Positions 26,283 to 64,000 are shown, counted from the stretch's first letter. The stretch is 64,000 bases of DNA from Candidatus Aminicenantes bacterium (GCA_963702005.1 OY969696.1:1504001-1568000), one strand, 5' to 3'. Numbers and translations: made by a program. Notes: generated from the letters alone by a model not told the origin.

Positions 26283-26303
26283 CTCATTTTCTTCCAACAA
26301 AGC

Positions 26304-31571: not shown

Positions 31572-31747
31572 GCCTTGCTACGGAGAGTAGGTTTTTATAA
31601 TTAATAAGTAAGATTAAGAAAATCGTTTGTGCTTAATTATAAGAAATAGGGTGTGGATAAATAACCTCTTGACAATATAAGTTACATAAGATATCATTCC
31701 CAATATGGGAACATATGCTAATGTAATATATTGTTCCACGGTAAGAA

Positions 31748-32035
31748 ATGAAACTAATAGGAAAATCAATATTAGACGAATTCAAACAAAAGCATGCCGA
31801 TGCTCGACCACAAATTGATTCTTGGGAAGCAGAAGTTAAGGAAGCAGAATGGAAAACCCCGCAGGATCTCAAAAACAGGTATCCCAAGGCTAGTATTTTA
31901 AGTAAGCAGCGTGTTGTTTTTAATATTTATGGAAATAAATATAGATTGCTAGCACTAGTCACCTATAAGACAGGAGTAGTATTGGTAATTAAAATAGGAA
32001 CGCACAAAGAATACGATAATTGGGTAATAGATTAA
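31748..32035 (+). CDS. higB: HigB-family toxin
   Basis: W..P.DLK.RYP.AS..RVVFNI.GNKYRL..IGTHKEYD. Confidence 0.9.
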   Translation: MKLIGKSILDEFKQKHADARPQIDSWEAEVKEAEWKTPQDLKNRYPKASILSKQRVVFNIYGNKYRLLALVTYKTGVVLVIKIGTHKEYDNWVID

Positions 32036-32051
32036 GATTAGGCAAAAAACT

Positions 32052-33266: not shown

Positions 33267-33267
33267 T

Positions 33268-44995: not shown

Positions 44996-45474
44996 ACACA
45001 TCCATTGTGGCGAAATCTATAACAGATAAATTTAAATATCCAGAAAGGCTGGGAACGCTGGGAATATGTAAGTATGGGGATGAATATCTTATTTTAAGGA
45101 TCGCGGAGGACTGGAAATATTGTCCCGGCGATTGGGATTTTGTAATGGGGACGTTCCAAGACGACAAAAAAACCCCTGAACAAAATGCAGTTATTAATAT
45201 AGAAATACATGCAGGTCTGCAGTCGATTAAGATTATAAACAGATTTCCTCTTTTTAAATGGAATGATGATGAAAGCAGGGTGTTATTCGTCTTACATCCA
45301 TTTCTGGTAAAAGCAAATGATAGAAAGCTCAAACTTAGCAGAAAATTTAGCGAAGGGAAGTGGGTCAAGTGGGAAAGCATCCTTGAAAACGATAGGAATG
45401 ATTACCTAAATAATGTATTGTCTCACATAGAAATAAATTTAATATTAGCAAGAGGACAACATGCCATGCTTTAA
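44974..45474 (+). CDS. NUDIX-like protein with degenerate box
   Basis: YLILR..YCPGDWDFVMG...TPEQNA..IEIHAGL. Confidence 0.45.
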   Translation: MGSVSILDTSIVAKSITDKFKYPERLGTLGICKYGDEYLILRIAEDWKYCPGDWDFVMGTFQDDKKTPEQNAVINIEIHAGLQSIKIINRFPLFKWNDDESRVLFVLHPFLVKANDRKLKLSRKFSEGKWVKWESILENDRNDYLNNVLSHIEINLILARGQHAML

Positions 45475-46162
45475 CGACGTGATTAATGTTAGTTCTCCTA
45501 TATTTTTTATTTATATCGGATTTAATATCGCTGCTTTTGCTTTTTTAACTCAGTACCTTACCTTTCCTAGGAGCATGTTATCAGATCTTAGTAATATGAA
45601 AAAAAACACGACAGCAAGTCCACGCATTATGGATTCTGAAGTTGTTAAAGTAGTGGATGATACTTATTGGCCGATTATTTCATATTTTTTTCAATTGGAT
45701 TATGTGACGTTTTCTCTATTAATGTTTATTCTTTATTCGATTCTACTGATAATAATTCTGACAGCAATCCACTTCGGGATCAAATTATTATCCGCAGCTG
45801 CAATTTTCCTCGTATCTTTTATTACAATTATATATTTTTTACTTAGGGCGTATTTAATAAAGGAATATGTATTAAAAAAGGAAACAATAAGGATTAAGGA
45901 AAAAGAAGTAAAGAGATATATAAGAGGAGATCCCTACTGGACCAAGACAGAAAGAGAAAGACTTGTAAAAATTGAAATATGCATTTCTTCATTTCTTTTA
46001 ATTGGAATTATAATAGCCTGTGCGATTAATAGTGGAATGGCGCTTTTTCTTTTTCTGGTTTTCATTTTGGTATGCAAATTAGCTTGGCACCTTTGGGTTA
46101 CTGCGAGCATAAATCCTGTTACTAGGTTAATAAAACTATGGGAGGAATTAACAAAGCTGTAG
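45461..46162 (+). CDS. Hypothetical membrane protein
   Basis: About 5 TM helices; AT-rich. Confidence 0.55.
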   Translation: MPCFNDVINVSSPIFFIYIGFNIAAFAFLTQYLTFPRSMLSDLSNMKKNTTASPRIMDSEVVKVVDDTYWPIISYFFQLDYVTFSLLMFILYSILLIIILTAIHFGIKLLSAAAIFLVSFITIIYFLLRAYLIKEYVLKKETIRIKEKEVKRYIRGDPYWTKTERERLVKIEICISSFLLIGIIIACAINSGMALFLFLVFILVCKLAWHLWVTASINPVTRLIKLWEELTKL

Positions 46163-46171
46163 GCAATCAAA

Positions 46172-47050
46172 ATGTTTAGTCAATTTTTTGTTAATGGAGT
46201 AATTGCGGGAATTATTTATGCTATTACAGCATTGGGATTTTCCATTATTTACAGGACAGTCAAATTCTTCCATTTTACCCATGGCATCGTTTATGCTGCA
46301 GGAGCCTATTTAGCTTATACTTTATTTAGTATTCTCCAAATTAATCCTCTTATAAGTTTATTTTTATCCATCATACTCGCGGCGATTCTGGGCGTAGCTA
46401 TTGATAGATTTGTGTATTATCCCCTTCGCAAAAATAAAACCTCGAGCTTGGTCTTTCTCCTCGCCTCTTTCGGCGTTTTTATATTCCTCCAAAACCTTCT
46501 CCAGCTTATCTTCGGCGCTCAAATCCTGACTCTGAGAGCAGGGCCGGTAAGAGAAGGGCATCATTTCCTCGGAGCCGTAATTACGGATAATCAGATTCTA
46601 ATAATCGTCTCAAGCCTTGTCTTATTCTTACTTTGCTGGTTCTTTATTCAGAAAACGAAATTCGGCAAAGCAATCCGGGCCGTCTCAGACGATCCGATTG
46701 GGGCGAGAGTGGTCGGTATCAATTCGGAAAAAATCATCATGATCGCCTTTGCCATCGGCTCGGCTCTCGCTGGAGCTGCTGGAATCCTTATTTCCCTTGA
46801 AACCAATATCGAGCCTACGATGGGCTTGAACGCCATACTTAAAGGCATTATCGCTTCAATAGTCGGCGGGATAGGAAGCATCCCCGGCGCCTTATTGGGT
46901 GGCCTTTTTCTAGGGCTAGCTGAGAATCTCGGAATTTGGCACATTCAGGCTGGATGGAAGGATGCGATCGCGTTTGGGATATTAATTCTATTTCTGCTTT
47001 TCCGGCCTTCGGGAATCATGGGCATAAGAACTGAGAAAGAAAAAATCTAA
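46172..47050 (+). CDS. livH: BCAA ABC transporter permease
   Basis: QFFVNG..ALGFSII..FGKAIRAVSDD..IVGGIGSIPGA. Confidence 0.9.
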   Translation: MFSQFFVNGVIAGIIYAITALGFSIIYRTVKFFHFTHGIVYAAGAYLAYTLFSILQINPLISLFLSIILAAILGVAIDRFVYYPLRKNKTSSLVFLLASFGVFIFLQNLLQLIFGAQILTLRAGPVREGHHFLGAVITDNQILIIVSSLVLFLLCWFFIQKTKFGKAIRAVSDDPIGARVVGINSEKIIMIAFAIGSALAGAAGILISLETNIEPTMGLNAILKGIIASIVGGIGSIPGALLGGLFLGLAENLGIWHIQAGWKDAIAFGILILFLLFRPSGIMGIRTEKEKI

Positions 47051-47053
47051 TTC

Positions 47054-47920
47054 ATGGAATACCTGATTCACATTCTTATAATCGCAGGCATATACATTAT
47101 TTATACTCTCAGCCTGAATCTGATCGTTGGCTATACGGGACTGGCCGCTTTGGGCCATATCGCCTTTGCCTGCGTTGGGGCCTATACCTCAAGCCTTCTC
47201 GCTTTGAATTTCGGAATCTCGCCTTGGATAGGGCTTTTAGTAGGAGCGATCCTGGCCTCCATTCTAGGCGCAATCGTTGCCTATCCGTCTTTAAGACTCA
47301 AAGGCGATTACCTTGCCCTGGCGACTTTCGGGTTGGGTGTTATTGTTTATTCGGTTGCCAAGAACTGGGTTAGCTTGACTCGGGGGCCGATGGGGCTCCC
47401 TGGTATTCCCTCGTTCTCCATATTCGGCTATCAGATCTCAAATGTCTGGAGCTATTTGATCCTGGTTTTAATCTTCGTTTTCATCACATATATAGTGATC
47501 AAAAACATCACCAACTCTCCCTTCGGAAGGATTCTTAAGGGAATCAGAGAGGATGAGATCGCTTCTCATGCGATGGGGAAGAATGTAAACAAATACAAGC
47601 TCATCGTCTTCATCGTCGGTGCGTTCTTCGCCGGAATTGCAGGGAGCCTCTACGCTCACTATATTTCATTCATCGACCCTTCAAGCTTCACAATTATGGA
47701 ATCCATCGCGGTTCTCCTCATGGTTGTGTTCGGAGGTTTGGGAAGCATAAAGGGGTCTTTTGTTGGGGCTTTTCTTCTTGTGATATTGCCTGAGCTTTTA
47801 AGATTCCTGGGCATGCCAAGCTCGGTCGCCGCTCCCCTGAGACAGATGATTTACGGGCTCTTGCTCGTTATCCTGATGATTTGGCGGCCACAGGGTTTAA
47901 TGGGAAAATACAAGTTTTAG
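47054..47920 (+). CDS. livM: BCAA ABC transporter permease
   Basis: NLIVGYTG, LRLKGDYLALAT, SPFGR..IREDE, RPQGL. Confidence 0.9.
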   Translation: MEYLIHILIIAGIYIIYTLSLNLIVGYTGLAALGHIAFACVGAYTSSLLALNFGISPWIGLLVGAILASILGAIVAYPSLRLKGDYLALATFGLGVIVYSVAKNWVSLTRGPMGLPGIPSFSIFGYQISNVWSYLILVLIFVFITYIVIKNITNSPFGRILKGIREDEIASHAMGKNVNKYKLIVFIVGAFFAGIAGSLYAHYISFIDPSSFTIMESIAVLLMVVFGGLGSIKGSFVGAFLLVILPELLRFLGMPSSVAAPLRQMIYGLLLVILMIWRPQGLMGKYKF

Positions 47921-47924
47921 TAGC

Positions 47925-48689
47925 ATGACCATGCTTCAGGTTCAGAATCTAAATAAGGAATTCGACGGAATTAAGGCTGTTGATAACCTTTCTTTTACCA
48001 TAGAAGACAATTCCATCGTTGCCCTGGTCGGCCCCAATGGATCAGGAAAGACAACGATCTTTAATATCATAAGCGGATTCTTAAAAGCCGAAAAAGGAAA
48101 GATTGTATTTGACGGCAGAAATATCACATTTTTGAATTCATTCAAGATAGCTCGTCTTGGTATCGGCAGGACTTTTCAAAATATTCGGCTTTTTCCTCAG
48201 ATTTCAGTCCTCGATAATGTAATGCTTGGGCTGAATTGTGAGACCGGAGAACGCTTCTTATCCGCGCTTTTTCAGACAAAGAGAATGAAGAAGGAAGAAG
48301 CGGAGAACATATTAAAAACCGAAGAGCTTCTAAAATTTGTAGGTTTATCTGAGAAACGAGATTCCTTGGCCGAGAACCTCTCCCATGGTCAAAGGAAACT
48401 GCTCGAATTAGCCCGTATTTTAGCCTTAGAGCCAAAAATCTTCCTCTTGGATGAGCCGGTAGCCGGGCTTTTCCCTGAGGCCAAAAAAACGGTGTTCGAC
48501 TTAATTAGAAAACTCAAAGATAGTGGGAAGACAATCCTTTTTATCGAGCACGATCTTCATTCGGCAATGGATATCGCTGAAAAAATCATTGTCCTGGATC
48601 ACGGGAAAAAGGTCGCGGAAGGTGCGCCGGAGGATATCAAACAAAACAGAGAAGTCTTAAAAGCCTATCTTGGAAAAGAATCCTTATGA
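47925..48689 (+). CDS. livG: BCAA ABC transporter ATPase
   Basis: GPNGSGKTT, GIGRTFQNIRLF, LLDEP, IEHD. Confidence 0.9.
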   Translation: MTMLQVQNLNKEFDGIKAVDNLSFTIEDNSIVALVGPNGSGKTTIFNIISGFLKAEKGKIVFDGRNITFLNSFKIARLGIGRTFQNIRLFPQISVLDNVMLGLNCETGERFLSALFQTKRMKKEEAENILKTEELLKFVGLSEKRDSLAENLSHGQRKLLELARILALEPKIFLLDEPVAGLFPEAKKTVFDLIRKLKDSGKTILFIEHDLHSAMDIAEKIIVLDHGKKVAEGAPEDIKQNREVLKAYLGKESL

Positions 48690-49405
48690 ATAAACTCCTT
48701 GAAGCGAACAACCTCACCGTCTATTACGGCACTATCCGGGCTTTGGAAAAAGCCTCTTTTTATGTAAATTCCGGCGAGATTGTAGCCATGATCGGCCCAA
48801 ATGGAGCCGGTAAATCCACGGCCCTTAATGTTGTTTGCGGATTGATTCCTGCTGAAGAGGGCGAGATTAAATTCAGAAGTGAAGATATAAAAGGTCATAC
48901 TCCTGATGAGCTGGTAAAAAAAGGTCTATCTTTAGTCCCAGAAGGCCGGAGAATCTTCTCTACAATGACGGTTCAAGAGAACATGGAGATGGGCGCGTTC
49001 ACGATTTCCGGCAAAGAGAAAATTCTTATCAAAGAAAGACTAGGGAAGATGTTTGGGCTTTTCCCGATTCTTGAAGAAAGACGAAAACAGAAAGCCGGGA
49101 CGCTCTCCAGCGGAGAGCAGCAAATGCTGGCCATCGGCAGGGCATTGATGTTGGAGCCGAAACTGCTTATGTTAGACGAGCCCTCATTAGGGCTTTCGCC
49201 TAACTATGTCGATATTGTCTTTGAAAAACTCCAGGAGATAAACAAAGCCGGAACTGCAATTCTTTTAGTTGAGCAGAACGCCTCGAAAGCTCTTGAGATC
49301 TGCAACAGAGGATATGTATTCGATATTGGGACGATTGCCTTGGAAGGAAGCCGGGATTCGCTCCTCAAAGATGGGCGGATAAAGAAGATCCTCGTAGGCG
49401 GATAA
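48686..49405 (+). CDS. livF: BCAA ABC transporter ATPase
   Basis: GPNGAGKST, VPEGRRIF, LSSGEQQMLA, DEPSLGL, VEQN. Confidence 0.9.
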   Translation: MNKLLEANNLTVYYGTIRALEKASFYVNSGEIVAMIGPNGAGKSTALNVVCGLIPAEEGEIKFRSEDIKGHTPDELVKKGLSLVPEGRRIFSTMTVQENMEMGAFTISGKEKILIKERLGKMFGLFPILEERRKQKAGTLSSGEQQMLAIGRALMLEPKLLMLDEPSLGLSPNYVDIVFEKLQEINKAGTAILLVEQNASKALEICNRGYVFDIGTIALEGSRDSLLKDGRIKKILVGG

Positions 49406-50120: not shown

Positions 50121-52311
50121 ATGGGTCTATTCAAAAGAAAGGGAATACAGCTTTTTGAAGAACCTGAAGAATCCGCCCTGCCCGAGCAGAAAGTCGAAAA
50201 CAAACCCGTTGAAGAAGAATCCATAACTCAGACCGAAGTTAAGCCCGATAAGGAACCAGAAAAAACTCTTGATCTCGGCTGGTATTATTCCGATAACAAA
50301 GAAGAATTTCAGATTGCGAAAATCGCGGAAAAAGACCGAGCCACGCATTTATACGTTGTCGGAGCTACGGGAACGGGCAAGACGAAATTTCTCGAATACC
50401 TGATTAGCCAGGATATCGAGAAAGGAAACGGCTTCGGGGTCATTGATCCGCATGGCGATTTAATCGAAGACGTTAAAGGCTTTTTGATCCTGCAATACAA
50501 TCCGGACGATCCGGAGATAACGGACAAGGTTATTCTTATCGATCCGACAGATCCGATTTTCACCGTGACATTCAATCCTTTGGAGAAAATGCTTGGCGTC
50601 CCTCTTGCGGAACAGGCAAATGAACTTATCTGCGCTTTCCGAAAAATCTGGTCCGACTTCCTGGGGCGTAAGGATGGAAGACCTGATGCGGAATTCTCTG
50701 ATTGCTCTGGGAGAGGCCGGGTTGACATTAATCGAGCTTCCGGCGTTCCTGAGCGATCGGGCTGTTCGGCAGGGCGTCTTGGAGAAAATCACGCATCCTT
50801 TAGCCAGAGAGTATTTCCGAAGGTTTGATACCGTGACCGACCGGGGCCAGATCACCTGGATCGAGCCGGTAATGAATAAAATCAATGCCTTTTTCTCAGA
50901 TGAGAGAATTAGGCATATTTTTTCCTCCGCGAAAAGCTCTTTCAACCTTAGAGAGATCATGGATTCACAAAAAATCCTACTGATCAAGCTCGATAAGGGA
51001 AAATTGAAGGATTCGGCCGACCTTCTCGGCTCGCTTCTCATGGCCCAAATCCAGATGGCCGCGTTCTCAAGATCAGACGTTCCCCAGGGCAAACGAACTA
51101 CGTTTTATTTGTATATCGACGAATTCCAGAATTTTGCCAGCGAATCGTTCTCCGTAGTATTGTCCGAAGCCCGCAAGTACGGGCTTTCTTTAATCATGGC
51201 TCATCAGACGCTCGCTCAGGTTCCCGAAGAATTAAGAAGCTTGATCTTGGGGAATGCCGGAATCCAAGTCTATTTCCGGCTTAATCGCCACGATGCCTCG
51301 ATTCTCGCCAAAGAAGCTTTCGAGTATTCGGGATTCGAAGTGAAGAACGTCAGCGGGTTCAAGCCTCGATACTGGAGTCTTGGCGAAGAATGGGAGCAGC
51401 ATACTAAAGACCTTCAGACCTTAGAGCCGAGAATCTGCTATGTGAAGCATAAAGTCGAAGGCGGAGTGATTCCCGTCCAGACGGCCTATATCGAAACTGC
51501 CCAGGAGGTTTTCGTCGAATTATTAGGGCGGGCTGAAGATGAGTATCTCAAATGGTTTGGAACGATTCCTTTTGGCCGGAAATACCTCGTGGAGCGGGGA
51601 AAACTTGATGCCGAAAGCAGAGCGAGAGAAGCGGAGGTTCAAGGGAAAGCCAAGCCGTACCAGAAAGAGACGCCGTACCGAAAAGAACCAGCACCGGCAA
51701 AGCCTGTGCCGAAAGCAGAATTACCGGCCGGAGGAAGGGTAATTGACGTAGAATCCATCGTAGTTCTGCCTAAAATAGAACTCCCGCCCCCAAAGGATAA
51801 AGCCGTATCTCAGCATCGGTATCTTCAAAATCTCATTAAGAAGATAGCGGAGGATAAAGGATACAAAGCGTCTATTGAGCAAACGATTCTTAACGGCGCA
51901 GGGAAGATTGACGTAAGCTTAGAAAAAATGGGGAAGAAAATCGCTTGTGAAATATCTATTACTACAAGCGGCGATCAGGAGCTAAAGAATATCGATAAAT
52001 GCCTTTCCGCTGGATATAAACAAGTGGTTCTTTGCTCGCCCGACCAAAAGACATTAGAGAATGTGCGAACCTTGGCTTCTCAGAAGCTGGGTCAAACTGA
52101 TCTGCTAAAAGTATTATTTTTCAAGCCCGAAGATCTCTTTTATTATTTAGAAAAAGAAGCGGCAGCCGAAGCATCGAAGGAAGCGCGGGTGAAAGGATAT
52201 AAGGTCAAAGTTCAGTATCAGCCCGTTAAAGAATCCGAGAAGAAAGCCAAGCGAGAAGCCGTGGCCCAGGTCATCCTTCAGGCGATGAAGAGGATGAGGG
52301 ACAAAAAATGA
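50121..52311 (+). pseudogene. Second TraD/TrwB-like ATPase with +1 frameshift at ~50658
   Basis: GATGTGKT, IDPHGD in one frame; SWGVRME, LYIDEFQNF, EARKYGL..AHQ in the next; TGG TCC GAC T TCC TGG carries one extra T. Confidence 0.8.
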
Positions 52312-53046: not shown

Positions 53047-54942
53047 ATGAGCCATATTGCTTCAAAGGAAAGTAAGTTAGAAAAAATACTGAATTACTTA
53101 CTCGAAGGTTTCCAGATTATTAGATTTGACTGGCGCTATTTATATGTCAATGATGCCGTTGCCAGGCAGGGGCGTATGACAAAGGAAAGACTGCTGGGCA
53201 AAACAATGATGGAAGCATATCCGGGAATAGATAAAACGCACATGTTCAGTGTGCTCAGAAGATGCATGGAAGAACGGACTTCAGCTTTTTTAGAAAATGA
53301 ATTCACTTTTCCAGACGGCTCTAAAGGTTGGTTTGAACTCAGAATGGAGCCCGTGCCAGAAGGTATTTCTATACTCTCTATTGAGATTAGTGAACGCAAG
53401 AAAGCGCTGGAAAGAAACGAGGAAATCGGCGAGCGATACCAAACGCTATTTGGCCGTTCAATGGACTGTGTCTATCTTCACGATTTCGAAGGAAGATTTA
53501 TCGATGCCAATCGTGCTGCTTTAGATCTCTTGGGCTACAGTATTGGGGAGTTTACATCTCTTAATTTTGCGTCTTTATTGACTCCAGACCAAATTCCAAC
53601 GGCACTTAAAGCCATAGAAGAAATTAAGAGAATTGGTTTCCAGAAAGATGTATCTGAATTTAGATTAACTAAAAAGAATGGCGAAAACATTTTTGTAGAG
53701 ACTAATGGATCTCTTATATATCGTGAGGGTCAACCTTATGCCATCCAAGGAATCGCCAGAGATATCACCAGCAGAAAGAAGATGGAAGATGAGTTAAGAA
53801 GGGTCAATCGTGCGCTCAAGACACTCAGTAAGTGTAACGATTCTGTAATCCGTGCTACAGATGAGAAATGTCTGCTGCAGAGCATCTGTAGAGATATTGT
53901 CGATATCGGAGGATATCGTTTAGCCTGGGTCGGATTCGCTGAACACGATGAAAAGAAATCTGTTCGGCCCATAGCTCAAGTCGGATATGAAGAAGGATAT
54001 ATCGAAACTTTGAACATCACGTGGGCAGATACAGAGCGGGGTCGAGGCCCGACCGGCAGGGCTATAAGAAAAGGCAAGCCTTCCATTGCCAGAAGAATCT
54101 TAACCGATCCCGATTTTGAGCCATGGAGAAAAGAAGCAGCAAAGCGGGGATATGCCTCATCTATCTCTCTTCCTTTATTCGCCAATGGCCTGTGCTTTGG
54201 AGCATTGAATATTTACTCTGTCGAACCGGATGCCTTTGACGATGAGGAAGAAAAGCTTCTTATAGACCTGGCGGATGATTTGGCCTATGGCATTGTTACG
54301 CTCCGCATGCGGGCTGAAGGAAAACGGGCAGAAGAAGAACTAAAGCATACGCTCGAAATGCTACGAAAAACTCACGGAGCGACTATTCAAGCCATCAATA
54401 GGATAGTTGAAAACAGAGATCCCTACACAGCCGGCCATCAAAGACGCGTCGCCGATCTTGCCCGGGCCATCGCCACTGAAATGAATTTATCAAGGCATAC
54501 CATCGATGGAATACGCGTTGCTGCCCAACTTCATGATCTAGGAAAAATATCTGTTCCATCCGAAATTCTCAGTAAGACGGGCAAGCTAACTGAAGCTGAA
54601 TATAGCTTGATAAAAAATCACCCCAAAGTTGCTTATGAAATATTGAGGACCATTGAATTCCCCTGGCCGATCGCTGATATTATTCTGCAGCATCATGAAA
54701 GAATGGATGGTTCAGGATACCCCCTGAGCTTAGCTGGTAATGATATATTAATAGAGGCAAGAATAATCGGGGTGGCTGATGTTGTTGAAGCAATGGTTTC
54801 TCACCGTCCCTATAGACCCGCCCTTCAATTAGAGGATGCTCTTAATGAAATATCTCAGAAGAGCGGCGTATTATATGATCCGAACGTGGCAGACGCTTGT
54901 ATAAGGCTTTTAAAAGAAAAAGATTTTCATTTCAGGGCATAA
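53047..54942 (+). CDS. PAS-PAS-GAF-HD-GYP phosphodiesterase
   Basis: DPYTAGHQRRV, LHDLGK, QHHERMDGSGYP, SHRPYR. Confidence 0.92.
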   Translation: MSHIASKESKLEKILNYLLEGFQIIRFDWRYLYVNDAVARQGRMTKERLLGKTMMEAYPGIDKTHMFSVLRRCMEERTSAFLENEFTFPDGSKGWFELRMEPVPEGISILSIEISERKKALERNEEIGERYQTLFGRSMDCVYLHDFEGRFIDANRAALDLLGYSIGEFTSLNFASLLTPDQIPTALKAIEEIKRIGFQKDVSEFRLTKKNGENIFVETNGSLIYREGQPYAIQGIARDITSRKKMEDELRRVNRALKTLSKCNDSVIRATDEKCLLQSICRDIVDIGGYRLAWVGFAEHDEKKSVRPIAQVGYEEGYIETLNITWADTERGRGPTGRAIRKGKPSIARRILTDPDFEPWRKEAAKRGYASSISLPLFANGLCFGALNIYSVEPDAFDDEEEKLLIDLADDLAYGIVTLRMRAEGKRAEEELKHTLEMLRKTHGATIQAINRIVENRDPYTAGHQRRVADLARAIATEMNLSRHTIDGIRVAAQLHDLGKISVPSEILSKTGKLTEAEYSLIKNHPKVAYEILRTIEFPWPIADIILQHHERMDGSGYPLSLAGNDILIEARIIGVADVVEAMVSHRPYRPALQLEDALNEISQKSGVLYDPNVADACIRLLKEKDFHFRA

Positions 54943-55012
54943 TGATGAGCTGCGATATATGAGAGCTACAATTGCAAGTGTTAAACAAAGTTCGCGGCAC
55001 AAATTAAATAGA

Positions 55013-55265
55013 CTATTTTAAAGATGTCATAAAAAAAGTAATTGTATCTGAAGGCTTCTTCGCAGGCTTATGTAAGTTTCTCTCCCACCCCGCAAGTGTC
55101 GTTGGATCAACTCCCAATTGCTCCGCCATCTTTTTCTGTGTCAGCCCGTGAACCCGCCGATATTCACGAATCCTTTCTCTTAAATTATCTGTCTTTATTT
55201 CGAACGGATCACGTCCCAGAGATTCGATTATTTCCGGAATTTGAGCCAAAGAGGCTTGAACTGTT
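55013..55265 (-). pseudogene. XRE-HTH relic homologous to 60789-61232
   Basis: SLAQIPEIIESLGRDPF..IREYRRVHGLTQKKMAEQLGVDPTTLAGWE. Confidence 0.75.
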
Positions 55266-55524
55266 TGCATGGTTTGAGGCAAATTGGGAGCACATAAAGG
55301 ACATAGTGGAGCGAACGGTTTTGATTTGGCTGCGTCCCTGGAACGTCCCCGGAATTCTGGGATCCCAGGTCGTTCTCTGCGCACAAAGGTGCCGGCTGTT
55401 AGCAAAAGGGGGGTTTTGATGGGAACCATCAAGGTGGGGGCTTTCTCCAACCGGCGAAAGAAAGCCATAAATATTATATCACAAGTCCGCGTGAAGAGGG
55501 TGAAGTCCGAGCCTCATCACGTGT

Positions 55525-55750
55525 CTATTCTTCAGGCGAAGAAAGATAGGTTTCGAGCTTTTCAAATAGCCTATTCGTGGGCCGATGCTCCCCTCTCTCC
55601 CACCCTGCCAGAGTTGTCTGATCGACCCCCAACTGTTCAGCCAACATCTTCTGGGTCAGCACATGAACCCGCCGGTATTCTCGAATCCTTTCTCCCAGAT
55701 TCTCTGTTTCTTTCTCAAAAGGGTCGCGGCCCAGAAACTCGGTGATCTTG
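55525..55750 (-). pseudogene. XRE-HTH relic homologous to 60789-61232
   Basis: KITEFLGRDPFEKETENLGERIREYRRVH..LGVDQTTLAGWERGEHRP. Confidence 0.75.
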
Positions 55751-55774
55751 GTGACGCTGAGGTCCACAAGTGAT

Positions 55775-55925
55775 CACGGGAGAGTCGTTCTTCCCAAAGG
55801 GTCTTACGATAGCGGGCGTTTTACGTAGTGATGCAAACAACGGTGAAGAACCGGCTCCAGGCGTTTTTGGCCCAGCAGGGGGAAGAGATACGCTCAGAGG
55901 TATCGCGGGTGGAGAACCTTCCCGC
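55775..55925 (+). pseudogene. IS110-like transposase fragment
   Basis: SQRVLR*RAFYVVMQTTVKNRLQAFLAQQG resembles the IS110 R..LV..T..KNR motif; contains a stop. Confidence 0.4.
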
Positions 55926-56005
55926 CCCTCAGACATACGACATATTCCCGCTGACCTCCAAAAACATCATGGCGGAATGGAGGGCAGACCAGGAGAGCGA
56001 TCGTT

Positions 56006-57382
56006 TTATACGTTCTTTATCCTGAGCTTTGAAACCTTGCTTTCATTGAGAACAATGGGTATTCCTTTTATCCTTCCATTTCGCTCAATGGTCACATCAA
56101 CTTTTTTGCCCCATTTGCCATTCATAATGTCTTGCCTGATTTTGTTAAACTCAGGGATGCTCTTGATGGTCTCTTTTCCCACCTTAATGACCCGATCATT
56201 AACTAATAAACCGGCGTTTTGAGCGCTTGAACCATAAGATATCCAATTCACATAAAACTTCCCTTCCTTTTCGTAAAGATCAAATGAAAAATCTAGGACG
56301 ATCTCTTCAAATGGTTCCAATTGATCAAGCAGGGAAAGAATTTCGGGGAAAAAGGATTCATAGGTGGGGAATTTCGACCTATTCTTTTCGTAATCACCCA
56401 ATTTTTCGTAGATAAAAGGGATGAGCAGAAAGGGAGTGTGTCCTCCCTCCCACTTGTCTTTGGGTGTCTGTCTCGTGACGTATTTATAGATTCTTGTCGT
56501 TGCCGCTCTGACAATATTCTCATTCAGACAGCTTCCCCATGTGGGATAATAAAGCTTCGTCATCACGTCATCTTGGTTTAACGTTTTGAATAGCCATTCT
56601 CTCTTGGCCACTTCAGATTGAAATTTGGCGGTGACGGGGTTGACGAACGAATGGCCAAATTCGTGGATGGCTCCACCGATCAAATCCTTGCCACTCGTCT
56701 GGTCATAGCTGGCTGAATCCGGGGGGACAGGCGTCGGGCTGATGACAGAATATCTGACCTTATGTTCTTCAAGTTCAGGGGACCCAAACAAGAATCCGGC
56801 TGGAGTGAGGAACGAGACATAGATATTAAATCTAAATTCTGGCTTAGATTGACCAAAATAATCTTCAAGGGGCTTTCTTACCGAAATTTGAGCAATCTCT
56901 TGATTAAACCTTTCAGCTACTCTCGCGTACTCATTGACGTGTTCTTCCCAGAATTTTTCAAAATGCGTGTCTTGATAAAAGTCTTTCACCGCCTTGGCAA
57001 AGTCCTCCAGAATCTTAGAATTACCAATTTCCAGGCCAATGTTCTGCGGAAATTTGCTGACGGTGAGGTCAGAAATGCTCCGGAACGAAAGGGCAAGGCC
57101 AGGGAAACGATCCAAGAAAATGTGATCGAGAATTTCGTCGGCTATCTGAACGGCTTTGTGATTTTTGTAGGATTCAAAGTATTCTAGGGCACTCCTTCGG
57201 ATAGGATGGACAAATTGGGCTTGTTGGGAACTGCCGTGGGGAGTCAGAATTCCAATACAGGTGAGCAATTCTATGCGTTCATCAAAGCTCACCACCACTT
57301 CATTTTGGGAATGGCCAGAGATCGTCATGAAAAATATCAGGAATACTAGAAGAGTTAAAATATGCTTGCTTTGCTTTTTCAT
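56006..57382 (-). CDS. Secreted DUF4932-like HExxH protein with C-terminal PDZ
   Basis: DERIELL, HEFGHSFVNP, ENIVRA; SSAQNAGLLVNDRVIKV..VTIERNG. Confidence 0.75.
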   Translation of the reverse strand: MKKQSKHILTLLVFLIFFMTISGHSQNEVVVSFDERIELLTCIGILTPHGSSQQAQFVHPIRRSALEYFESYKNHKAVQIADEILDHIFLDRFPGLALSFRSISDLTVSKFPQNIGLEIGNSKILEDFAKAVKDFYQDTHFEKFWEEHVNEYARVAERFNQEIAQISVRKPLEDYFGQSKPEFRFNIYVSFLTPAGFLFGSPELEEHKVRYSVISPTPVPPDSASYDQTSGKDLIGGAIHEFGHSFVNPVTAKFQSEVAKREWLFKTLNQDDVMTKLYYPTWGSCLNENIVRAATTRIYKYVTRQTPKDKWEGGHTPFLLIPFIYEKLGDYEKNRSKFPTYESFFPEILSLLDQLEPFEEIVLDFSFDLYEKEGKFYVNWISYGSSAQNAGLLVNDRVIKVGKETIKSIPEFNKIRQDIMNGKWGKKVDVTIERNGRIKGIPIVLNESKVSKLRIKNV

Positions 57383-57509
57383 CCACTCAATATATTATTT
57401 TATATCATAATGATATTTAAAAGCATTATATTATTAGTATAAAATAATACCTCCAGGCAGTGTCAACTCTTATTCGCAATTTCGGGGGCCGAGGAGCCAA
57501 AAAGGTTAG

Positions 57510-57716
57510 TGAAAATAAGCAAGTAATTTGGCCAAATTATCAACAAGTTTCTTCGAGGGCTGATGTTCTCCTCTTTTCCACCCCGCTAGGGTCGATTCCG
57601 ATTTGCTCGGCAAATATTTTTTGCGATACCCCATGAACCCGTTGATAATCCCGAATCGTATCTCGTAGGCTTCTTGAAGTGACCTCAGACGGATCGCGGC
57701 TCAGGAATTCGATCAT
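57510..57716 (-). pseudogene. Degenerate XRE-HTH relic
   Basis: Own translation: IEFLSRDP..IRDYQRVHGVSQKIFAEQIGIDP / frameshift / LAGWKRGEHQP. Confidence 0.65.
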
Positions 57717-57859
57717 AAGGCAATGATTCCTTAGCTCGATTTATTTCTTATAGATGCATCTCTGGTGTGGACCTCCTTGATCTAAATGCAAGCTATTAGG
57801 TAACTTTTTTCTTATAAAAAGAGTCTTATAAAGGAGAAGATATTATTAGGAGTCACGCA

Positions 57860-59848
57860 ATGCGAACCAGGCCGCTCATTTCTATATTGTTTATTTTTCC
57901 TGGGGTGGAAAATATAGGCCCGATAAAGCAATTGCATTCCATAATGAGGCGAATTCTCATTTCTATCATGCTTTTAATATCCAGTTTAAATAACCCAGGT
58001 ATTTGCAAAGATCAAAAACCGTGTTCGATAAAATCTCATAATCTTAAGATAGAGTTTAACTCCGATATTCATGAGATGAGAGTAGTCGATAAAATCTTTT
58101 TATCTGAAAATTGGAATAAGAATTCTCCTTTCCTAGCTAAAATTGACTCTCTCTTCTTGATTTCCAGCATTTGTTCACAAGAAGGAAGGCCCGTGGCCTA
58201 TAAATATCAAGACGGCAAACTTGAAATACCGAGTCTGGCTGGAATGGAGAGCTTCACTGTCGAATATTCGGGCGTTCTTAATACGGATTTGAGAAGCGAT
58301 CCCTTTGCCAAAGTGGCTGGTTCATTTTATCTTCTGAAGGAGCTCGATTGGATTTTTACTCCTGCGGGCACTGAAGCAGAAAAGGCCGTTATGGAGTATC
58401 GTATTCCTAAGGAATTTGACATCATCACAGAAGGTCACCCGGTCAGTGAAAGGGTCATAGGCGACAAAAAAATAAGCGTCTGGGAAGTGGATGGGTGCGA
58501 ATCGTGGTTGTACTGCATGATAGGCAAATGGCATAAGACGAACAGGAAAGTCGGTCAATCTGAAGTTAGAGTCTGGCTGGCCTCCCATAAACCGGAATTG
58601 GCGGAAAAGCTTGTTGAAACAATAGAGAAAATCTTCTGTTTCTATTCAGAGATCTACACTGCTTATCCGCGTCCCGACTTTACTTACCTGGAATTTCCAA
58701 ACGATTATGCGGCCTGGAATGGCTATCTGAAAGTGGTTTTTATGCGCGAATCCGCAACTTGGGGAATTCCAGACGATATTGAATTTGTGGCCCACGAGAT
58801 AGCTCATAACTGGTGGCCCAACTACATCGGTTTGAAAAGGGATGAAGAACTCGACCTTGATGGCGAAGCGTTTTGTGACTTTTCTGCCGCGCTGGCCAAT
58901 GAATTTCTGTTCGGCTCAGTAAAAAAGCAGGAACGTGCAAAAGAATTGGTATGGTTCATGGCCTATCCAGAAGAGAAATATCGAAAAGGCAAGTTTCTTC
59001 TGCACAATCTTAGACTGATTTATGGGGATAAACTATTTTTCAAGTGGGTTAAAGACTTTTCTGAAAGATATAAAGGAAGAAGAACAAGCACAGAGGATTT
59101 CTTTGCTATGGCTCCTCGGAAAGAAGGATTTGATTTGAATGGATTCCTGGCAACTTGGAAGGAGGTTAAGATCCTTCCTGTTTTCGAGCTACAATATGAT
59201 AAAAAGAAAATGAAATCGGGAAACCGGTATGAGATAACGATAAGTATTCATCAACAGCCGAATCCGCCGATTATTGGGTGGCATATCCCCGTTCTTGTTC
59301 GCTCAAAAGACACGGAAGTTCAGAAACTCGTGGAATTAACTGGGGAAGTTACAAAAAGTCGCTTGGAGACGGAGTTTGAACCTGAAGAGGTTTTGCTCGA
59401 TCCAAATTATATAATTCCCAGGCGAGTGCCAGAATTTCAAAAGTATGCCGAAGCCCTGATTTTAATAGACGCCAAGGCATTCCCGCTTATCTTCAAGAAG
59501 AATTTTCAAGACTGCCTCCCCTTTCTATTTCAGGCCCTGGAACTGGACACGGAAAATGCCGAAACACACTACCTCATCGGGAGGGCATACAAGAATCTTA
59601 ATCAGCCAGACAAGGCAAAAGAGTTTTTTTCCACGGCGACTGCCAAAATCCTTGGCTGGTATATGGGGAATCGTTACACGACGGACCAGCTCCATGTTTA
59701 TTCTCTTTGGGAATTGGCCCAGATCTTTCTCAAAGAAGGGAATTATGCTTTAGCTCGGAAAAACCTCGAAGCGATATTAATAAAGCCCGACATTGAAGGT
59801 TATCACGCAAAAGCATCAGATGAGCTAAAGAAGATCAAGAATATCTAA
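57860..59848 (+). CDS. M1-family metallo-aminopeptidase with C-terminal TPR
   Basis: AHEIAHNWW..GEAF, YRKG..LHNLR, LDPNY, TPR helices. Confidence 0.8.
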   Translation: MRTRPLISILFIFPGVENIGPIKQLHSIMRRILISIMLLISSLNNPGICKDQKPCSIKSHNLKIEFNSDIHEMRVVDKIFLSENWNKNSPFLAKIDSLFLISSICSQEGRPVAYKYQDGKLEIPSLAGMESFTVEYSGVLNTDLRSDPFAKVAGSFYLLKELDWIFTPAGTEAEKAVMEYRIPKEFDIITEGHPVSERVIGDKKISVWEVDGCESWLYCMIGKWHKTNRKVGQSEVRVWLASHKPELAEKLVETIEKIFCFYSEIYTAYPRPDFTYLEFPNDYAAWNGYLKVVFMRESATWGIPDDIEFVAHEIAHNWWPNYIGLKRDEELDLDGEAFCDFSAALANEFLFGSVKKQERAKELVWFMAYPEEKYRKGKFLLHNLRLIYGDKLFFKWVKDFSERYKGRRTSTEDFFAMAPRKEGFDLNGFLATWKEVKILPVFELQYDKKKMKSGNRYEITISIHQQPNPPIIGWHIPVLVRSKDTEVQKLVELTGEVTKSRLETEFEPEEVLLDPNYIIPRRVPEFQKYAEALILIDAKAFPLIFKKNFQDCLPFLFQALELDTENAETHYLIGRAYKNLNQPDKAKEFFSTATAKILGWYMGNRYTTDQLHVYSLWELAQIFLKEGNYALARKNLEAILIKPDIEGYHAKASDELKKIKNI

Positions 59849-59906
59849 TTGTTTGATCCGCTAGCGTATAGCAATGTTTGCTCTAGAGGAGGAGCGATCG
59901 TAGACT

Positions 59907-60058
59907 CTGGAAACCGGCTTTTTTGTCCTTAAGGCTAAATAGCAGAAAAGCATCACGACCCTGCGAGGAGGTTCTGCGTGCGCCGGGACGATCCGGAAAG
60001 GTCCGGGGCGACTCGCGGACGCGTACTGGCCGCCCGCGAGCGTCAGCTCCGCCGATTC
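59907..60058 (+). repeat. Degenerate second attR plus collapsed comM 3' relic
   Basis: 59907-59978 aligns without gaps to 61183-61254 (CCCTG at 59959); 60027-60058 matches comM 61434-61465. Confidence 0.85.
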
Positions 60059-60100
60059 TGCATGTGATATAATATCTTGGGAAGCGAGTGGGTAGTGGAC

Positions 60101-60643
60101 ATGAGAAAAAGAGGATTGTTTTCAGCCGGCCTCATCCTTTTCCTGTGGGCCGGACTCCTGGCCCCCGCTCCGAACGATTTTCCTAAAAAGACGCCAGGAA
60201 AGGAGCAGCCGCAACGGCCGATATTTTATGCCCTCCAGGTCGTTTGCGAAAAGGACGTCCAAAACTCAAGAGATTCGCTGGGTGCGCCGGATGGCCGCTC
60301 TGCGGAGATCCTTCCGGGCGGCGGGCTCGTCGTGCTCATGGAGAAAAAGCTTTATCCCTTCCCGAGTTCCCCCTCGCCGGAGGGAGAAGGAGGACTGGCG
60401 GAAAGCGGCTCAGTAGTTGGCAAAGGAGGGCCGGACTTCATCCTCGAAGGCTGGTTCCTAGTACAGGATACGCAGGCCAAGCACCGCTATGTCTGGGTGC
60501 CTCTAGGATTGTCGGCGGGCGGCTTTTGCGTCGGGCTTGAAGGCAGTGAGGGTGTGAACATGATCAGGATCACGAACCCAGGCAACAAATCCTTGTTTGT
60601 GGACGCCGTAGTCGGACGCGGCAGGGAAACACAAGGAAGATAG
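60101..60643 (+). CDS. Hypothetical secreted protein
   Basis: Signal peptide MRKRGLFSAGLILFLWAG. Confidence 0.6.
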   Translation: MRKRGLFSAGLILFLWAGLLAPAPNDFPKKTPGKEQPQRPIFYALQVVCEKDVQNSRDSLGAPDGRSAEILPGGGLVVLMEKKLYPFPSSPSPEGEGGLAESGSVVGKGGPDFILEGWFLVQDTQAKHRYVWVPLGLSAGGFCVGLEGSEGVNMIRITNPGNKSLFVDAVVGRGRETQGR

Positions 60644-60788
60644 AAGGCACTAGCCGCCCTTGCCAGCGGCACCCTTGACTTTCCCGCGCTCGAGGATGCC
60701 AAGAAGAAGCTGGCGGCGCTGAAGTGAATGTGATTTCTTCATAGGGACTTATAGCCGCATCGAGATTATCTACCATCCCAAGCCTCGA

Positions 60789-61232
60789 TTAAATTTGAGT
60801 TTGAAATAGCTCAATTCCGGTCAATTTTTCAAGAAACCTTTTCATCGGCCGATGCTTCCCTCTCTCCCATCCCGCCAACGTCGTCTGATCAATTCCTAAT
60901 AGAGTAGCAAATTTCTTCTGCGTCAGCCCGTGGATCCGCCGGTATTCCCGAATCTTTTCGCCTAAATTCTCTGTCCTTTTCTCAAACGGATCGCAGCCAA
61001 GGAACTCGATAATCTTAGGAATCTGGGCTAGAGACGGCTGGACTCGGTTCTTTTCCCAAAGATATATCGTGAGGTCCGAAACATTAAGCTTTAGGGAAAG
61101 TTGGCGCTTGGTGAGCTTCAAATCAATCCTTCGGGCTCTAATCCAGTCGCCCCACGTCTTCATAAAATCAGGGTATTTCTCCCTGGAAACCGGCTTTTTT
61201 GCCTTTAAGGTTAAATGGCAGAAAGGCAACAC
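60789..61232 (-). CDS. Tandem XRE-HTH domains; predicted C-terminal part of LSR1 after excision
   Basis: Two HTH repeats (IRARR..LWEKNR; IREYRR..GWERG); frame begins at attR. Confidence 0.8.
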   Translation of the reverse strand: MLPFCHLTLKAKKPVSREKYPDFMKTWGDWIRARRIDLKLTKRQLSLKLNVSDLTIYLWEKNRVQPSLAQIPKIIEFLGCDPFEKRTENLGEKIREYRRIHGLTQKKFATLLGIDQTTLAGWERGKHRPMKRFLEKLTGIELFQTQI

Positions 61233-61255
61233 AACCCTGCGAGGAGGTCCTGCGC
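61212..61255. other. attR of comM island
   Basis: ATGGCAGAAAGGCAACACAA-CCCTG-CGAGGAGGTC (comM resumes CEEVLRG). Confidence 0.85.
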
Positions 61256-61711
61256 GGGCTGGCCGGGACCGGGGTCGAATGCACGGAGAGCCAACGGCGG
61301 CGCTACTACTCCAAGATCTCCGGCCCGCTCCTCGACCGTATCGACATCCTCATCGAAGTCCCCGCCGTCCGCTTCCACGAGGTCGTGGGGCGCGTTGAAA
61401 CCGAGAGCTCAGAAAAAATTCGAGCCCGCGTTGTGGCCGCCCGCGAACGTCAGCTCGGCCGCTTCCGGAAGAAGCGGATCTTCGCCAACGCCCACATGGG
61501 GCCGCGCGAGGTCAGGGCCCACTGCCGGGTGGACGGGGAAGGGGAGAGGCTCCTGGAGGCGGCGATTAAAAGGCTGGGGTTAAGCGCGAGGGGCTACGAC
61601 CGGGTCCTCAAGGTCGCCCGGACCATCGCTGATCTGGCGGGTGAAGAGGCGATTTCCCCCGCTCATTTGAGCGAAGCCATCCAGTACCGCATGATGGACA
61701 GGTACCCGTGA
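61240..61711 (+). pseudogene. comM: comM 3' part
   Basis: KISGPLLDRIDI, LSARGYDRVLKVARTIADL, HLSEAIQYR. Confidence 0.92.
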
Positions 61712-61863
61712 TTCCCTCCCCTATTCAGGTGAGAAAAGCTCCCCATAAATCACCCCTTCAATCATTCTTAGTGGTGATTTACTTATTTTAAATTAAACTA
61801 TATAAATAATATTTAGATTTCATTATCTAGCAAAGGAATCAAGTCTATGAAAGGGTTACTGAA

Positions 61864-63675
61864 GTGGGAACGACTGGAGCTAAGTACAAGTTAACTGAGG
61901 AAGTACTTCGAGATAAAGAGAGTATATATAATTTCCTTTTGGATAATTCAAAAGGGATTATTCTCATCCTTAGCAGAAGAGGGAAAATACTTTTTGCCGA
62001 TAAAACCATCTTAGACAACTTTGGTTATTCTGAAGAAGAAATAGCCGGCAAATCAATCACAAGTTTCTTAACGAAAGATAGCATCACGAGGGCATTATAT
62101 GCTCTTGCGCAAGAATTTCTTGGTCAGCCTCAACCAGAGATGGAAGTTCGAGCTAAGACGAAATCTGGTGAAATAAGATATTTAAAAGTCGCCAAGGGCT
62201 CATCCCCTATTTATGAAGAAGGCAAATTGATTGGGGTAATGGTTAGCGCCAGCGACATCACTGATTCCAAGAAAGCCGAGAAAGAGCTGGGGGAAAGCGA
62301 GCAACGCTTCAAGGAATTGTGGGATAATGCCCCTGTTGCCTATCACATATTGGATGCCAAAGGGATTATCACTAATGTAAATCAAACCGAAGCGAAAATG
62401 CTCGGATATGCCAAGGAAGAAATGACAGGGAAATCAATATTCGAATTTATTTTGCCTGATCAGAAAGAAGAAGCAAAAAAACGATTTCAACACAAGATGT
62501 CCGGTCGGCATGTCCCAAAAGCAGGTAACAGGATATATGTTAAAAAAGATGGTTCAAAGATTTATGTTGATATCGATGAGGTATTGGAACGAGATTATGA
62601 CGACAAGATCATCGGTGTCCGGACAACGATGATTGATATTACAAAACAAAAAGAGACAGATGCGGGTTTAAAGACATCGATGGAACTTTATAGAGACCTG
62701 GTTGAAGGGGCGGGTGTCGCTATTCTAGTTGATGACAGAGAAGGAAGTTCCAAATATATAAATGAAAAATATGCTGAGATTTTCGGATACTCTGTGGAGG
62801 AGATAAAAAAACAATCTATTCGATCGATTGTTTATCCTGATGATGTTGAGAGAGTACTAGCCTATCATACAAGACAAATTCAGGGTAGCGAGACTCACTC
62901 CAAATATGAATTTAGAGGAGTCAAGAAGGATGGAACTGTCATATATCTTGAAGTGGCATCAATTGCCTTAAAAGAAGGGGAAAACATTGTGGGAACTCGC
63001 TCATACCTATGGGATATTTCCGAGCGTAAGACGACAGAAATGGAACTAAAAAATGTTCTGGAGACGCTGCGTAAAGCTATGGGCGCAACTGTTCAAGCCA
63101 TTAGCAGGCTCGTCGAAATGAAGGACCCTTATACTGCTGGGCATCAAAGACGCGTTGCTGACCTTGCTCGTGCAATAGCCAAAGAAATGGGGCTTTCGAA
63201 TGACCAAATCGATGGTATTCGTGTTACAGCATTAATTCATGATATAGGCAAAATATCTATTCCGGCCGAAATCCTCAGCAAGCCAGGTCGATTAACAGAA
63301 GTAGAATTCAATATGATTAAGACTCACCCACAATGTGGTTATGAAATATTAAGATCAATAGAATTTCCATGGCCCGTTGCTCAAATTGTTCTTCAGCATC
63401 ATGAAAGGATCGATGGATCAGGTTATCCATCAGGCATATCAGACAAAGAAATTACCCAAGAAGCAAAAATATTGGCAGTAGCGGATGTTGTTGAAGCCAT
63501 GATCTCTCACCGACCTTATCGACCAGCTCTCGGCATAGATAAAGCCCTCGAGGAGATATCTAAAAATAGTGGGGTTCTTTTTGATCCTAAGGTGGTAGAA
63601 GTTTGCACAAACCTTTTTGTCCAGAAAGGCTTTAACTTCAGAAAACAGAAAAATCTGTCAGTTTTGCCTTATTAA
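61864..63675 (+). CDS. PAS x3 HD-GYP phosphodiesterase
   Basis: DPYTAGHQRRV, IHDIGK, QHHERIDGSGYP, SHRPYR. Confidence 0.92.
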   Translation: MGTTGAKYKLTEEVLRDKESIYNFLLDNSKGIILILSRRGKILFADKTILDNFGYSEEEIAGKSITSFLTKDSITRALYALAQEFLGQPQPEMEVRAKTKSGEIRYLKVAKGSSPIYEEGKLIGVMVSASDITDSKKAEKELGESEQRFKELWDNAPVAYHILDAKGIITNVNQTEAKMLGYAKEEMTGKSIFEFILPDQKEEAKKRFQHKMSGRHVPKAGNRIYVKKDGSKIYVDIDEVLERDYDDKIIGVRTTMIDITKQKETDAGLKTSMELYRDLVEGAGVAILVDDREGSSKYINEKYAEIFGYSVEEIKKQSIRSIVYPDDVERVLAYHTRQIQGSETHSKYEFRGVKKDGTVIYLEVASIALKEGENIVGTRSYLWDISERKTTEMELKNVLETLRKAMGATVQAISRLVEMKDPYTAGHQRRVADLARAIAKEMGLSNDQIDGIRVTALIHDIGKISIPAEILSKPGRLTEVEFNMIKTHPQCGYEILRSIEFPWPVAQIVLQHHERIDGSGYPSGISDKEITQEAKILAVADVVEAMISHRPYRPALGIDKALEEISKNSGVLFDPKVVEVCTNLFVQKGFNFRKQKNLSVLPY

Positions 63676-63729
63676 TCATTTATGACATTTCAAACCATTT
63701 TTTTCACTGTTTCTGTGAATAAGTTTATT

Positions 63730-64000
63730 GAAAAAGAGGAAATTCCTTTCAAAGAAATATTGCCATTTGGTCAAGGTTCAGTGTCGGCCTTTTCCCACCC
63801 TGCCAGCGTGGTCTGGTCGACTCCCAACTGTCCGGCCATCTTTTTCTGTGTCAGCCTATGAGCTCGCCTATATTCCCGAATTTTATCTCCTAAATTCTCC
63901 TTTTCTTTTTCAAACGGATCACGGCCAAGGAACTCGATGATCTTCGGAATCTGGGCCAAAGACGGCTTGACCTTGTTCTTTTCCCAGAGATATATCGTGA
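63730..64000 (-). pseudogene. Further XRE-HTH copy beyond comM 3', cut by window end
   Basis: TIYLWEKNKVKPSLAQIPKIIEFLGRDPFEK..; colinear with ~60840-61072; frameshift near its 3' end. Confidence 0.8.

Follow-up and report, generated by a model that had tools for sequence, protein, structure and literature searches.

Cassettes carrying the comM 3' end form an array at the right end of a serine-recombinase island in Candidatus Aminicenantes

Introduction

Mobile elements often split comM, the gene for a helicase needed for natural transformation, and this is thought to protect the element from removal by transformation. A locus in the single-contig genome of a Candidatus Aminicenantes bacterium (4.31 Mb, 60% guanine plus cytosine (GC)) raises a further question about such insertions: how does the inserted DNA come to end in a series of repeated boundaries, in which a helix-turn-helix (HTH) gene, the end of the island and the 3' end of comM recur with different cargo genes between them? 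The stretch analyzed, called the window below, comprises 64,000 nucleotides (nt; bases 1504001-1568000 of the contig), and positions are counted from its first base. Within it a 58-kb island splits comM, and the repeats make up the island's right end. A preliminary description, drawn up from the DNA of the window, had proposed for these repeats a unit of comM 3' part, cargo, HTH gene and attachment site, built up in series either from island ends or from integrase-less mini-cassettes.

Genome comparisons directly support two parts of an answer. First, a large serine recombinase (LSR1) inserted the island, whose GC content is 40%, into codons 349-350 of comM, at the TG within a CCCTG motif. Second, downstream of the LSR1 island lie older cassettes that carry no recombinase, each made up of the part of comM that extends from CCCTG through its stop codon (the tail), one or more cargo genes, a gene for an XRE-type HTH protein and a 72-nt arm of the island end. 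As to how these came together, we consider it probable that the array grew by serial accretion of cis-mobilizable cassettes whose tail restores both comM and the attachment site attB, the chemistry of cassette insertion being the part that we infer.

Results

The limits of the insertion are given by two genomes of the same genus (G001 and G002; loci L035 and L036), in which comM is whole and an M20 peptidase gene follows directly, with nothing between the two. As this is the empty site, all of the DNA that separates the comM 5' part from the M20 gene in our genome is inserted. The GC content drops to roughly 40% from about 5546 to about 64210, and is back at 63% just past the window. The comM 5' part (4497-5545, plus strand) has 349 codons plus the TG, covers the Pfam ChlI domain and positions 1-162 of the 207 of Mg_chelatase, and is 88% and 85% identical to the same part of the intact genes in G001 and G002, respectively; it is the only comM 5' match in the whole genome. 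The open reading frame (ORF) in which it lies (4497-5576) corresponds to the 5' two-thirds of comM/YifB and stops 31 nt past the attL CCCTG. This part and a complete tail at the other end of the island (R2, below) join in frame through the TG of the CCCTG that they have in common (5541-5545 and 61235-61239). It is this CCCTG that forms the comM junction, and not the one at 61181 to which the preliminary description had pointed, which sits inside the island arm. The target is thus precisely interrupted here and uninterrupted in relatives, as is characteristic of elements that large serine recombinases insert.

The recombinase itself is encoded at the left end (5518-7023, minus strand) and combines the Pfam Resolvase (PF00239, 4.4e-31) and Recombinase (PF07508, 4.2e-18) domains. 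The 3' end of its gene, with the stop codon, lies across attL, whose core, as read from the sequence, is the CCCTG at 5541-5545, with TG at 5544-5545 as the crossover dinucleotide; the same five nucleotides recur in attR at 61235-61239. When the two ends of the island are joined at the TG, the resulting attP aligns with eight uninterrupted recombinase-HTH spacers from other loci, and all of these form an imperfect inverted repeat with GGCAAC-type arms around a central TG that is shared with attB. Such a repeat around the TG is as predicted by integration through a serine recombinase with a TG crossover.

A scan for LSR1 turned up 346 relatives, and 80 loci from many phyla were kept for counts of gene neighbourhoods. 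At 51 of these a comM 5' part, interrupted at the same codon as in our genome, directly adjoins the 3' end of the recombinase gene, and at eight an HTH gene on the same strand directly follows the recombinase gene. A comM tail on the same strand comes next at three further loci (L062, L105 and L111), pointing to a sub-lineage whose insertions have the opposite orientation. Nothing was detected after the recombinase gene at 14 of the 80 loci, and the contig ends there at four. Closer to our genome, two members of the same order (G028 and G010) have comM cut at the same place and encode LSR1 homologues (81% and 79%). An Armatimonadota island of the LSR1 type (L051, 4391-8512) interrupts the host comM and brings with it a second, complete comM gene, located immediately upstream of its recombinase gene, by which the disruption would be offset in a different manner.

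We searched for copies of the right-hand junction with blastn, using 61100-61720 as query. Three copies of the succession HTH start, 72-nt arm, CCCTG and comM 3' end were found within 53047-64208, the repeated boundary amounting to about 0.9 kb of gene, arm and tail. The middle copy is the intact one. Its full arm (61164-61234) and CCCTG span 61164-61239, the inner part of the arm corresponding to the left half of the inverted repeat that the eight loci of attP form show uninterrupted, and they lead into the complete tail R2 (61235-61711, plus strand; 158 codons and a stop codon). R2 encodes Mg_chelatase positions 155-205 and the Mg_chelatase_C domain, lies in an ORF (61199-61711) that carries the rest of comM, and has 88% amino-acid identity to the G001 tail.

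The copy to its left had been described as a second attR followed by a collapsed comM 3' relic at 59907-60058, and matches to the intact junction uphold both halves of that description. At 59907-59963, aligned with 24 other junctions, a partial arm and the CCCTG remain, the HTH gene having been deleted; the match of 59907-59986 to 61183-61262 (86%) takes in the arm, the CCCTG and the first 23 nt of comM past it. The tail relic R1 (59959-60058, plus strand) shows an internal deletion and a truncation, its two pieces matching 61235-61262 and, from 60020-60058, 61427-61465 (87%). A third attR with CCCTG and a comM 3' part had been predicted to follow position 64000. A partial arm (64092-64133) and a comM tail relic (R3, 64134-64208) are indeed present there, but the CCCTG core is lost: in this copy (64028-64208) a deletion from mid-arm into comM has removed the crossover core and most of the tail, leaving two comM pieces. 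R3 ends 50 nt ahead of the backbone M20 peptidase gene (64258-65736). The aligned pieces of R1 and R3, at 20-51 nt, do not separate R2, G001 and G002 as to the lineage of these relics.

In an alignment of 25 junctions the 72-nt arm, GGCAAC half-site included, is kept at at least 80% in most columns. The three bases ahead of the TG vary (CCC, GGG, CGG and ATG), and the TG is the only invariant centre, kept in 23 of the 25 as well as at the loci of attP form; it is mutated in L018 and deleted in R3. As the sequence upstream of the HTH gene lies in the arm as well, more than one factor may account for this conservation. The idea that displaced tails are expressed in frame through the arm was dropped on reading the same alignment, in which the frame is open in some junctions and closed in L018, with no consistent start codon.

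Repeats of this kind in a metagenome-derived genome might be an artefact of assembly. No public sequencing run was found to contain this genome; the best one contains 0.13 of the sampled words. However, the copies are only 68-86% identical in nucleotides and hence too diverged to collapse or be mis-joined, and the same architecture recurs in independent assemblies, including three single-contig ones (G017, G023 and G056). We regard mis-assembly as hardly credible. Contigs from four metagenome runs match the window in fragments only; several short ones stop or start exactly at 61234/61235, and a 1.9-kb contig from one soil run is 97% alike to the HD-GYP gene at 61864-63675, hinting that related junctions are present elsewhere.

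The gene that marks the array encodes an XRE-type regulator of 124 amino acids, complete at 60789-61163 (minus strand; two stretches of Pfam HTH_3, 4.7e-22), with a real ATG at 61163. A tblastn search of the whole genome with this protein gives five matches, all within 55037-64091, in accord with the expectation that the family is tied to the comM locus and not scattered. One is the gene itself (60792-61163, 100%), and another is a copy with a premature stop (63720-64091, minus strand, 70%), which reaches past the end of the window. The other three, likewise on the minus strand, hold the second domain only: 55037-55261 within the ORF 55013-55468 (residues 41-115, 67%); an 80-amino-acid ORF at 55525-55767 (tblastn 55555-55755, residues 48-114, 73%; HTH_3 9.4e-11); and a frameshifted copy at 57506-57716, in two overlapping ORFs with an 8-nt alignment gap (tblastn 57585-57716, 48%). 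Six full or partial copies of an HTH module had been listed for the array, and their coordinates are confirmed. Their nature needs amending, since the copies at 55013, 55525 and 57510 are second domains beside which blastn with the junction sequence finds neither arm nor comM relic, and 59907 is without HTH coding sequence. A second recombination point inside the HTH gene was also considered and rejected: the partial copies begin near residues 41, 48 and 51, their breakpoints lie 10-30 nt apart, and two of the copies have start codons of their own. We favour the boundary between the domains as the probable explanation for the partial copies.

Cargo genes of unlike kinds lie between the HTH copies, as the preliminary description had named them. 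Pfam matches identify a PAS/GAF/HD-GYP sensor protein (53047-54942, plus strand; HD_5, PAS and GAF), a DUF4932/PDZ protein (56006-57382, minus strand), an M1-peptidase/TPR protein (57860-59848, plus strand) and a PAS/HD-GYP sensor protein (61864-63675, plus strand), which is a paralogue of the first (a repeat family, 71% identical). The protein previously called secreted (60077-60643, plus strand; 188 amino acids, 55% GC) has a hydrophobic N-terminus and matched no Pfam family. Neither of the units that span 59959-61239 and 61235-64133 contains a recombinase gene, which is the property expected of cis-mobilizable units that accrete beside an autonomous element.

A scan with the HTH protein shows that such units are not confined to this genome. 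It yielded 21 related loci, mostly from Candidatus Aminicenantes genomes assembled from metagenomes. A comM tail divergently adjoins the HTH gene at 16 of the 21, and six have two or more tails; the HTH proteins beside comM tails in Aminicenantes are 62-78% identical to the 124-residue regulator. Five genomes of the same order as ours (L014, L018, which is also G030, G017, G023 and G056; the last three closed) combine an intact comM with 2-7.5 kb of low-GC cargo, the HTH gene, the arm, CCCTG and a displaced tail. In all five, the tblastn matches to the comM 5' part and the tail are contiguous; open frames of 508, 515 and 522 amino acids extend across the comM 5' part in G017, G030 and G023, respectively, and one of 519 amino acids across the in-gene tail in G056. 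The cassettes of these five genomes thus bring a target 3' end on the element's side that keeps the gene open, with the native end displaced, whereas comM in our window is currently split. A search of two of the closed genomes, G017 and G023, gave no LSR1 homologue at E <= 1e-10, and the units there are accordingly recombinase-less; G023 has two full units and a further relic. Together with the 16 tail-HTH loci and the five intact comM genes, this bears out the unit proposed in the preliminary description.

The cargo in these other genomes includes HD-GYP sensors, TPR proteins, a subtilase, radical-SAM enzymes, a GTPase and nuclease-like or protease-like genes. Two or more tail matches occur in 30 of 201 sampled genomes of the order. 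One locus (L011, 9345-9452) has a comM tail followed, 6 nt past its stop codon, by only the first 40 codons of the HTH gene and then the arm, which amounts to a unit without cargo.

In L018 and L014 the in-gene tail and its displaced counterpart share homology that begins precisely at CCCTG and ends at the comM stop codon, and among 21 tails there is neither a conserved element end past the stop codon nor a shared flank. Tails of one genome are about 90-98% alike in nucleotides (98% in L018), with the differences clustered toward the 3' end in L014, L040 and L042; between genera they have 57-72% amino-acid identity. In seven within-genome pairs the ratio of nonsynonymous to synonymous divergence (pN/pS) is 0.04-0.25, while pS reaches 0.44-0.50. 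As the differences are mostly synonymous, the copies diverged under selection as coding sequence and not as silent duplicates formed in place. Moreover, the G023 and G010 tails differ by a pS of 0.20-0.26 against 0.109 for the 5' parts (Fisher p 0.0004-0.025), whereas a control pair with empty sites has a ratio of tail to 5' divergence of only 1.26; this points to an exchange of tails between related strains. In our genome R2 and the 5' part have diverged equally from G001 (ratio 1.26), and R2 is hence host-like at the level of the genus.

These data weigh on the proposal that the attR/comM-tail region was duplicated in tandem where it stands and then diverged, with no horizontal arrival. The units are direct repeats in a single orientation, as it would have them, and the host-like divergence of R2 suits it as well. 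But the cargo differs in each unit, the HTH copies are only 48-73% identical in protein, the tail copies of other genomes have the low pN/pS just given, unlike a silent duplicate, and the G023 tails have diverged further than the 5' parts of the two host genomes. Such a duplication is disfavoured by these points and seems to us very unlikely.

The main rival to serial accretion holds that homologous recombination, and not the serine recombinase, moves the cassettes. Two tails of an array would recombine through RecA and release a circle of tail, cargo, HTH gene and arm, and one Campbell-type crossover would let this circle enter again at any similar comM tail; the arm would then be a fossil of the island end at which the first circle arose by aberrant excision. 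This account is attractive in that the duplicated segment coincides with the region of homology, that the tails of one genome are near-identical (as in L018) or mosaic (as the 3' clustering in L014, L040 and L042 suggests) and always close to the host lineage, and that cassettes are retained in closed genomes in which the search gave no LSR1 homologue. It accounts less well for the retention of the arm half-site and the TG, seen in 23 of 25 junctions across lineages that share only 62-78% identity in their HTH proteins, although the HTH upstream region could also cause this. Random aberrant excision does not predict that every internal tail ends at the stop codon without a shared flank, and a pS of 0.4-0.5 in some tail pairs is high for efficient homologous exchange. 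On balance we think it rather unlikely that homologous recombination between tails is what moves the cassettes.

The remainder of the island contains further mobile-element genes. A second large serine recombinase (LSR2, 35035-36648) and a short tyrosine-recombinase gene (39229-39825) both lie inside it, marking the island as a composite of several elements; an LSR2 homologue (44%) occurs in L013, 6.5 kb from an HTH/tail junction. Two type-IV coupling-protein-like genes with TraG/TrwB domains (50121-52311, in two overlapping frames, and 23700-25019) are present, and the island may represent a conjugative or mobilizable element in decay. We also observed an IS200-like gene for a Y1 transposase (20884-21327), a complete branched-chain amino-acid ABC transporter operon as cargo (binding protein, two permeases and two ATPases; 43862-49405), and a defence-like cluster (25515-34347) that encodes a PD-(D/E)XK nuclease, a 963-residue AAA/SMC-like protein, a SocA/Panacea antitoxin-like protein, an IrrE/HTH protein and a 'Beta protein'.

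Discussion

Under serial accretion, a cassette that comes to lie beside the comM 5' part would complete the gene with its tail and rebuild attB. The next element could then insert at the same TG, shifting to the right whatever units were already there and, last of all, the native tail, so that restoration of attB would lead to a stack of units with the oldest at the right. Read in this manner, the oldest component would be R3, the decayed native tail (64134-64208), followed in order of arrival by the unit of R2, HD-GYP gene and HTH gene (61235-64133), the unit of R1, 188-residue protein and HTH gene (59959-61234), and lastly the LSR1 island, whose own right end would be the arm at 59907.

LSR1 might pair its attL with any intact attR, and several attR sites could thus serve as partners of one attL. 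Were a distal attR used, the cassettes in between would be picked up within the composite island; were a proximal one used after transfer, they would be left beside a repaired comM. Such picking up and dropping off explains the cassette arrays next to whole comM genes in genomes where no recombinase homologue was found. In our genome excision at 61235 would restore comM with R2, and the model likewise explains why R2, the tail that excision would reuse, is intact while R1 and R3 have decayed. The host-like character of the tails might result from selection on the chimeric ComM, from gene conversion by the displaced native tail or from homology-dependent entry.

Several points weigh against serial accretion. 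The LSR1 island has no comM tail beside attL, where the CCCTG runs directly into the 3' end of the recombinase gene. Further, canonical large serine recombinases of the phiC31/Bxb1 type are not known to use attL or attR as substrates for integration; a free cassette circle would carry an attR-type site, and its direct insertion into attB is therefore not expected. Pick-up and drop-off sidesteps this problem but does not account for the first joining of a tail to an island end. That the tails are always near the host's own lineage is as compatible with homology-dependent exchange or gene conversion as with selection. The three second-domain HTH copies, having no att site or tail beside them, may be ordinary paralogues and not old units, and the 30 multi-tail genomes include at least one (G003) with a single tail split by a frameshift. 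Finally, the argument for accretion is one from comparison of sequences.

A bolder extension of serial accretion is that comM-tail cassettes form an integron-like gene-capture platform dependent on a serine recombinase. Since each cassette would rebuild comM and attB, the site could take up and release single cargoes without limit, with the LSR1 islands of many phyla as shuttles. We hold this to be possible but doubtful, and bolder still is its corollary that displaced tails are under selection through reuse or expression. If the platform exists, a competence gene doubles as a cassette dock.

The locus has a wider bearing on how mobile elements share a target. One recombinase family cuts comM at a single codon in many phyla, and in one bacterial order small cassettes with a 158-codon tail appear to be its countermeasure or companion, making comM whole and re-arming the site for the next insertion. 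This points to a route by which serine recombinases may give rise to accretion arrays although their product sites, attL and attR, are not known to serve as targets of insertion. The junctions additionally make available naturally occurring variants of attB, attP and attR for a single family of enzymes, and the cassettes offer a likely route for the spread of sensor, peptidase and defence-like genes in uncultured bacteria of sediment and soil.

Comparison with known systems

The array is set apart from integrons, which have the tyrosine recombinase IntI, attI and cassettes bounded by attC: here the recombinase is of the serine type, and the boundary is a succession of gene, arm and tail instead of an attC hairpin. 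Nearer parallels are the CIMEs of ICESt1/ICESt3 at fda and the SCC and pseudo-SCC elements at rlmH, in which att-bounded elements without a recombinase share a site with an autonomous element and travel with it. Insertion in these systems is serial, at one regenerated site, and SCC, too, uses large serine recombinases. Their site, however, lies at the extreme 3' end of the gene and their repeats are of 15-30 bp, and they are not known to duplicate a long coding tail or to have a conserved regulator in each unit.

A second parallel is provided by elements that supply a substitute 3' end, such as phage 21 and e14 at icd and the islands at tRNA and tmRNA genes, where the gene stays whole and the displaced end is left as a partial copy. 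Almost all known cases of this type involve tyrosine recombinases, for which attL or attR is still usable as a target, whereas the serine type needs a full attB to be rebuilt; at comM, moreover, the substitute end travels on recombinase-less cassettes. Stacks with partial target copies, in which newcomers push older elements deeper, are also described for tycheposons (bioRxiv 10.1101/2020.12.28.424599).

The closest described system is the tandem stack of ssrA islands in Dehalococcoides. According to the relevant sections of that account (McMurdie et al., 2011; PMC3146451), the islands are stacked downstream of one single-copy gene, a CcrB-like large serine recombinase is encoded on the reverse strand beside attL, the boundaries are 20-bp direct repeats of the target's 3' end, and some units without an integration module are proposed to be cis-mobilizable by accretion. 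All four features, namely stacking downstream of one gene, the serine recombinase at attL, repeats of the target's 3' end and recombinase-less units, have counterparts at comM. As far as those sections go, two differences stand out. First, the Dehalococcoides repeat is 20 bp of an RNA gene, whereas that at comM comprises 477 bp and corresponds to the final third of a protein-coding gene, interrupted in mid-gene. Second, the recombinase islands of Dehalococcoides themselves carry the repeat that leaves the target intact, while the LSR1 island has no tail and splits comM, and only the small cassettes restore it.

A survey of large serine recombinases reports that many of them converge on one gene that bears the annotation 'ATP-dependent protease' (Durrant et al., bioRxiv 10.1101/2021.11.05.467528). 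ComM/YifB is often so annotated and is presumably the gene meant, although the paper does not say so; its passages on single-gene targeting make no mention of tail-bearing cassettes or arrays. The literature searched yielded no description of comM-tail cassettes, but 'comM' queries were swamped by journal abbreviations, so that a published account is possible. Judged by these comparisons, what appears to be new at this locus is the conjunction of a mid-gene site, a coding tail of 477 bp, the carriage of this tail by recombinase-less cassettes and not by the recombinase island, and a conserved regulator that marks each unit.

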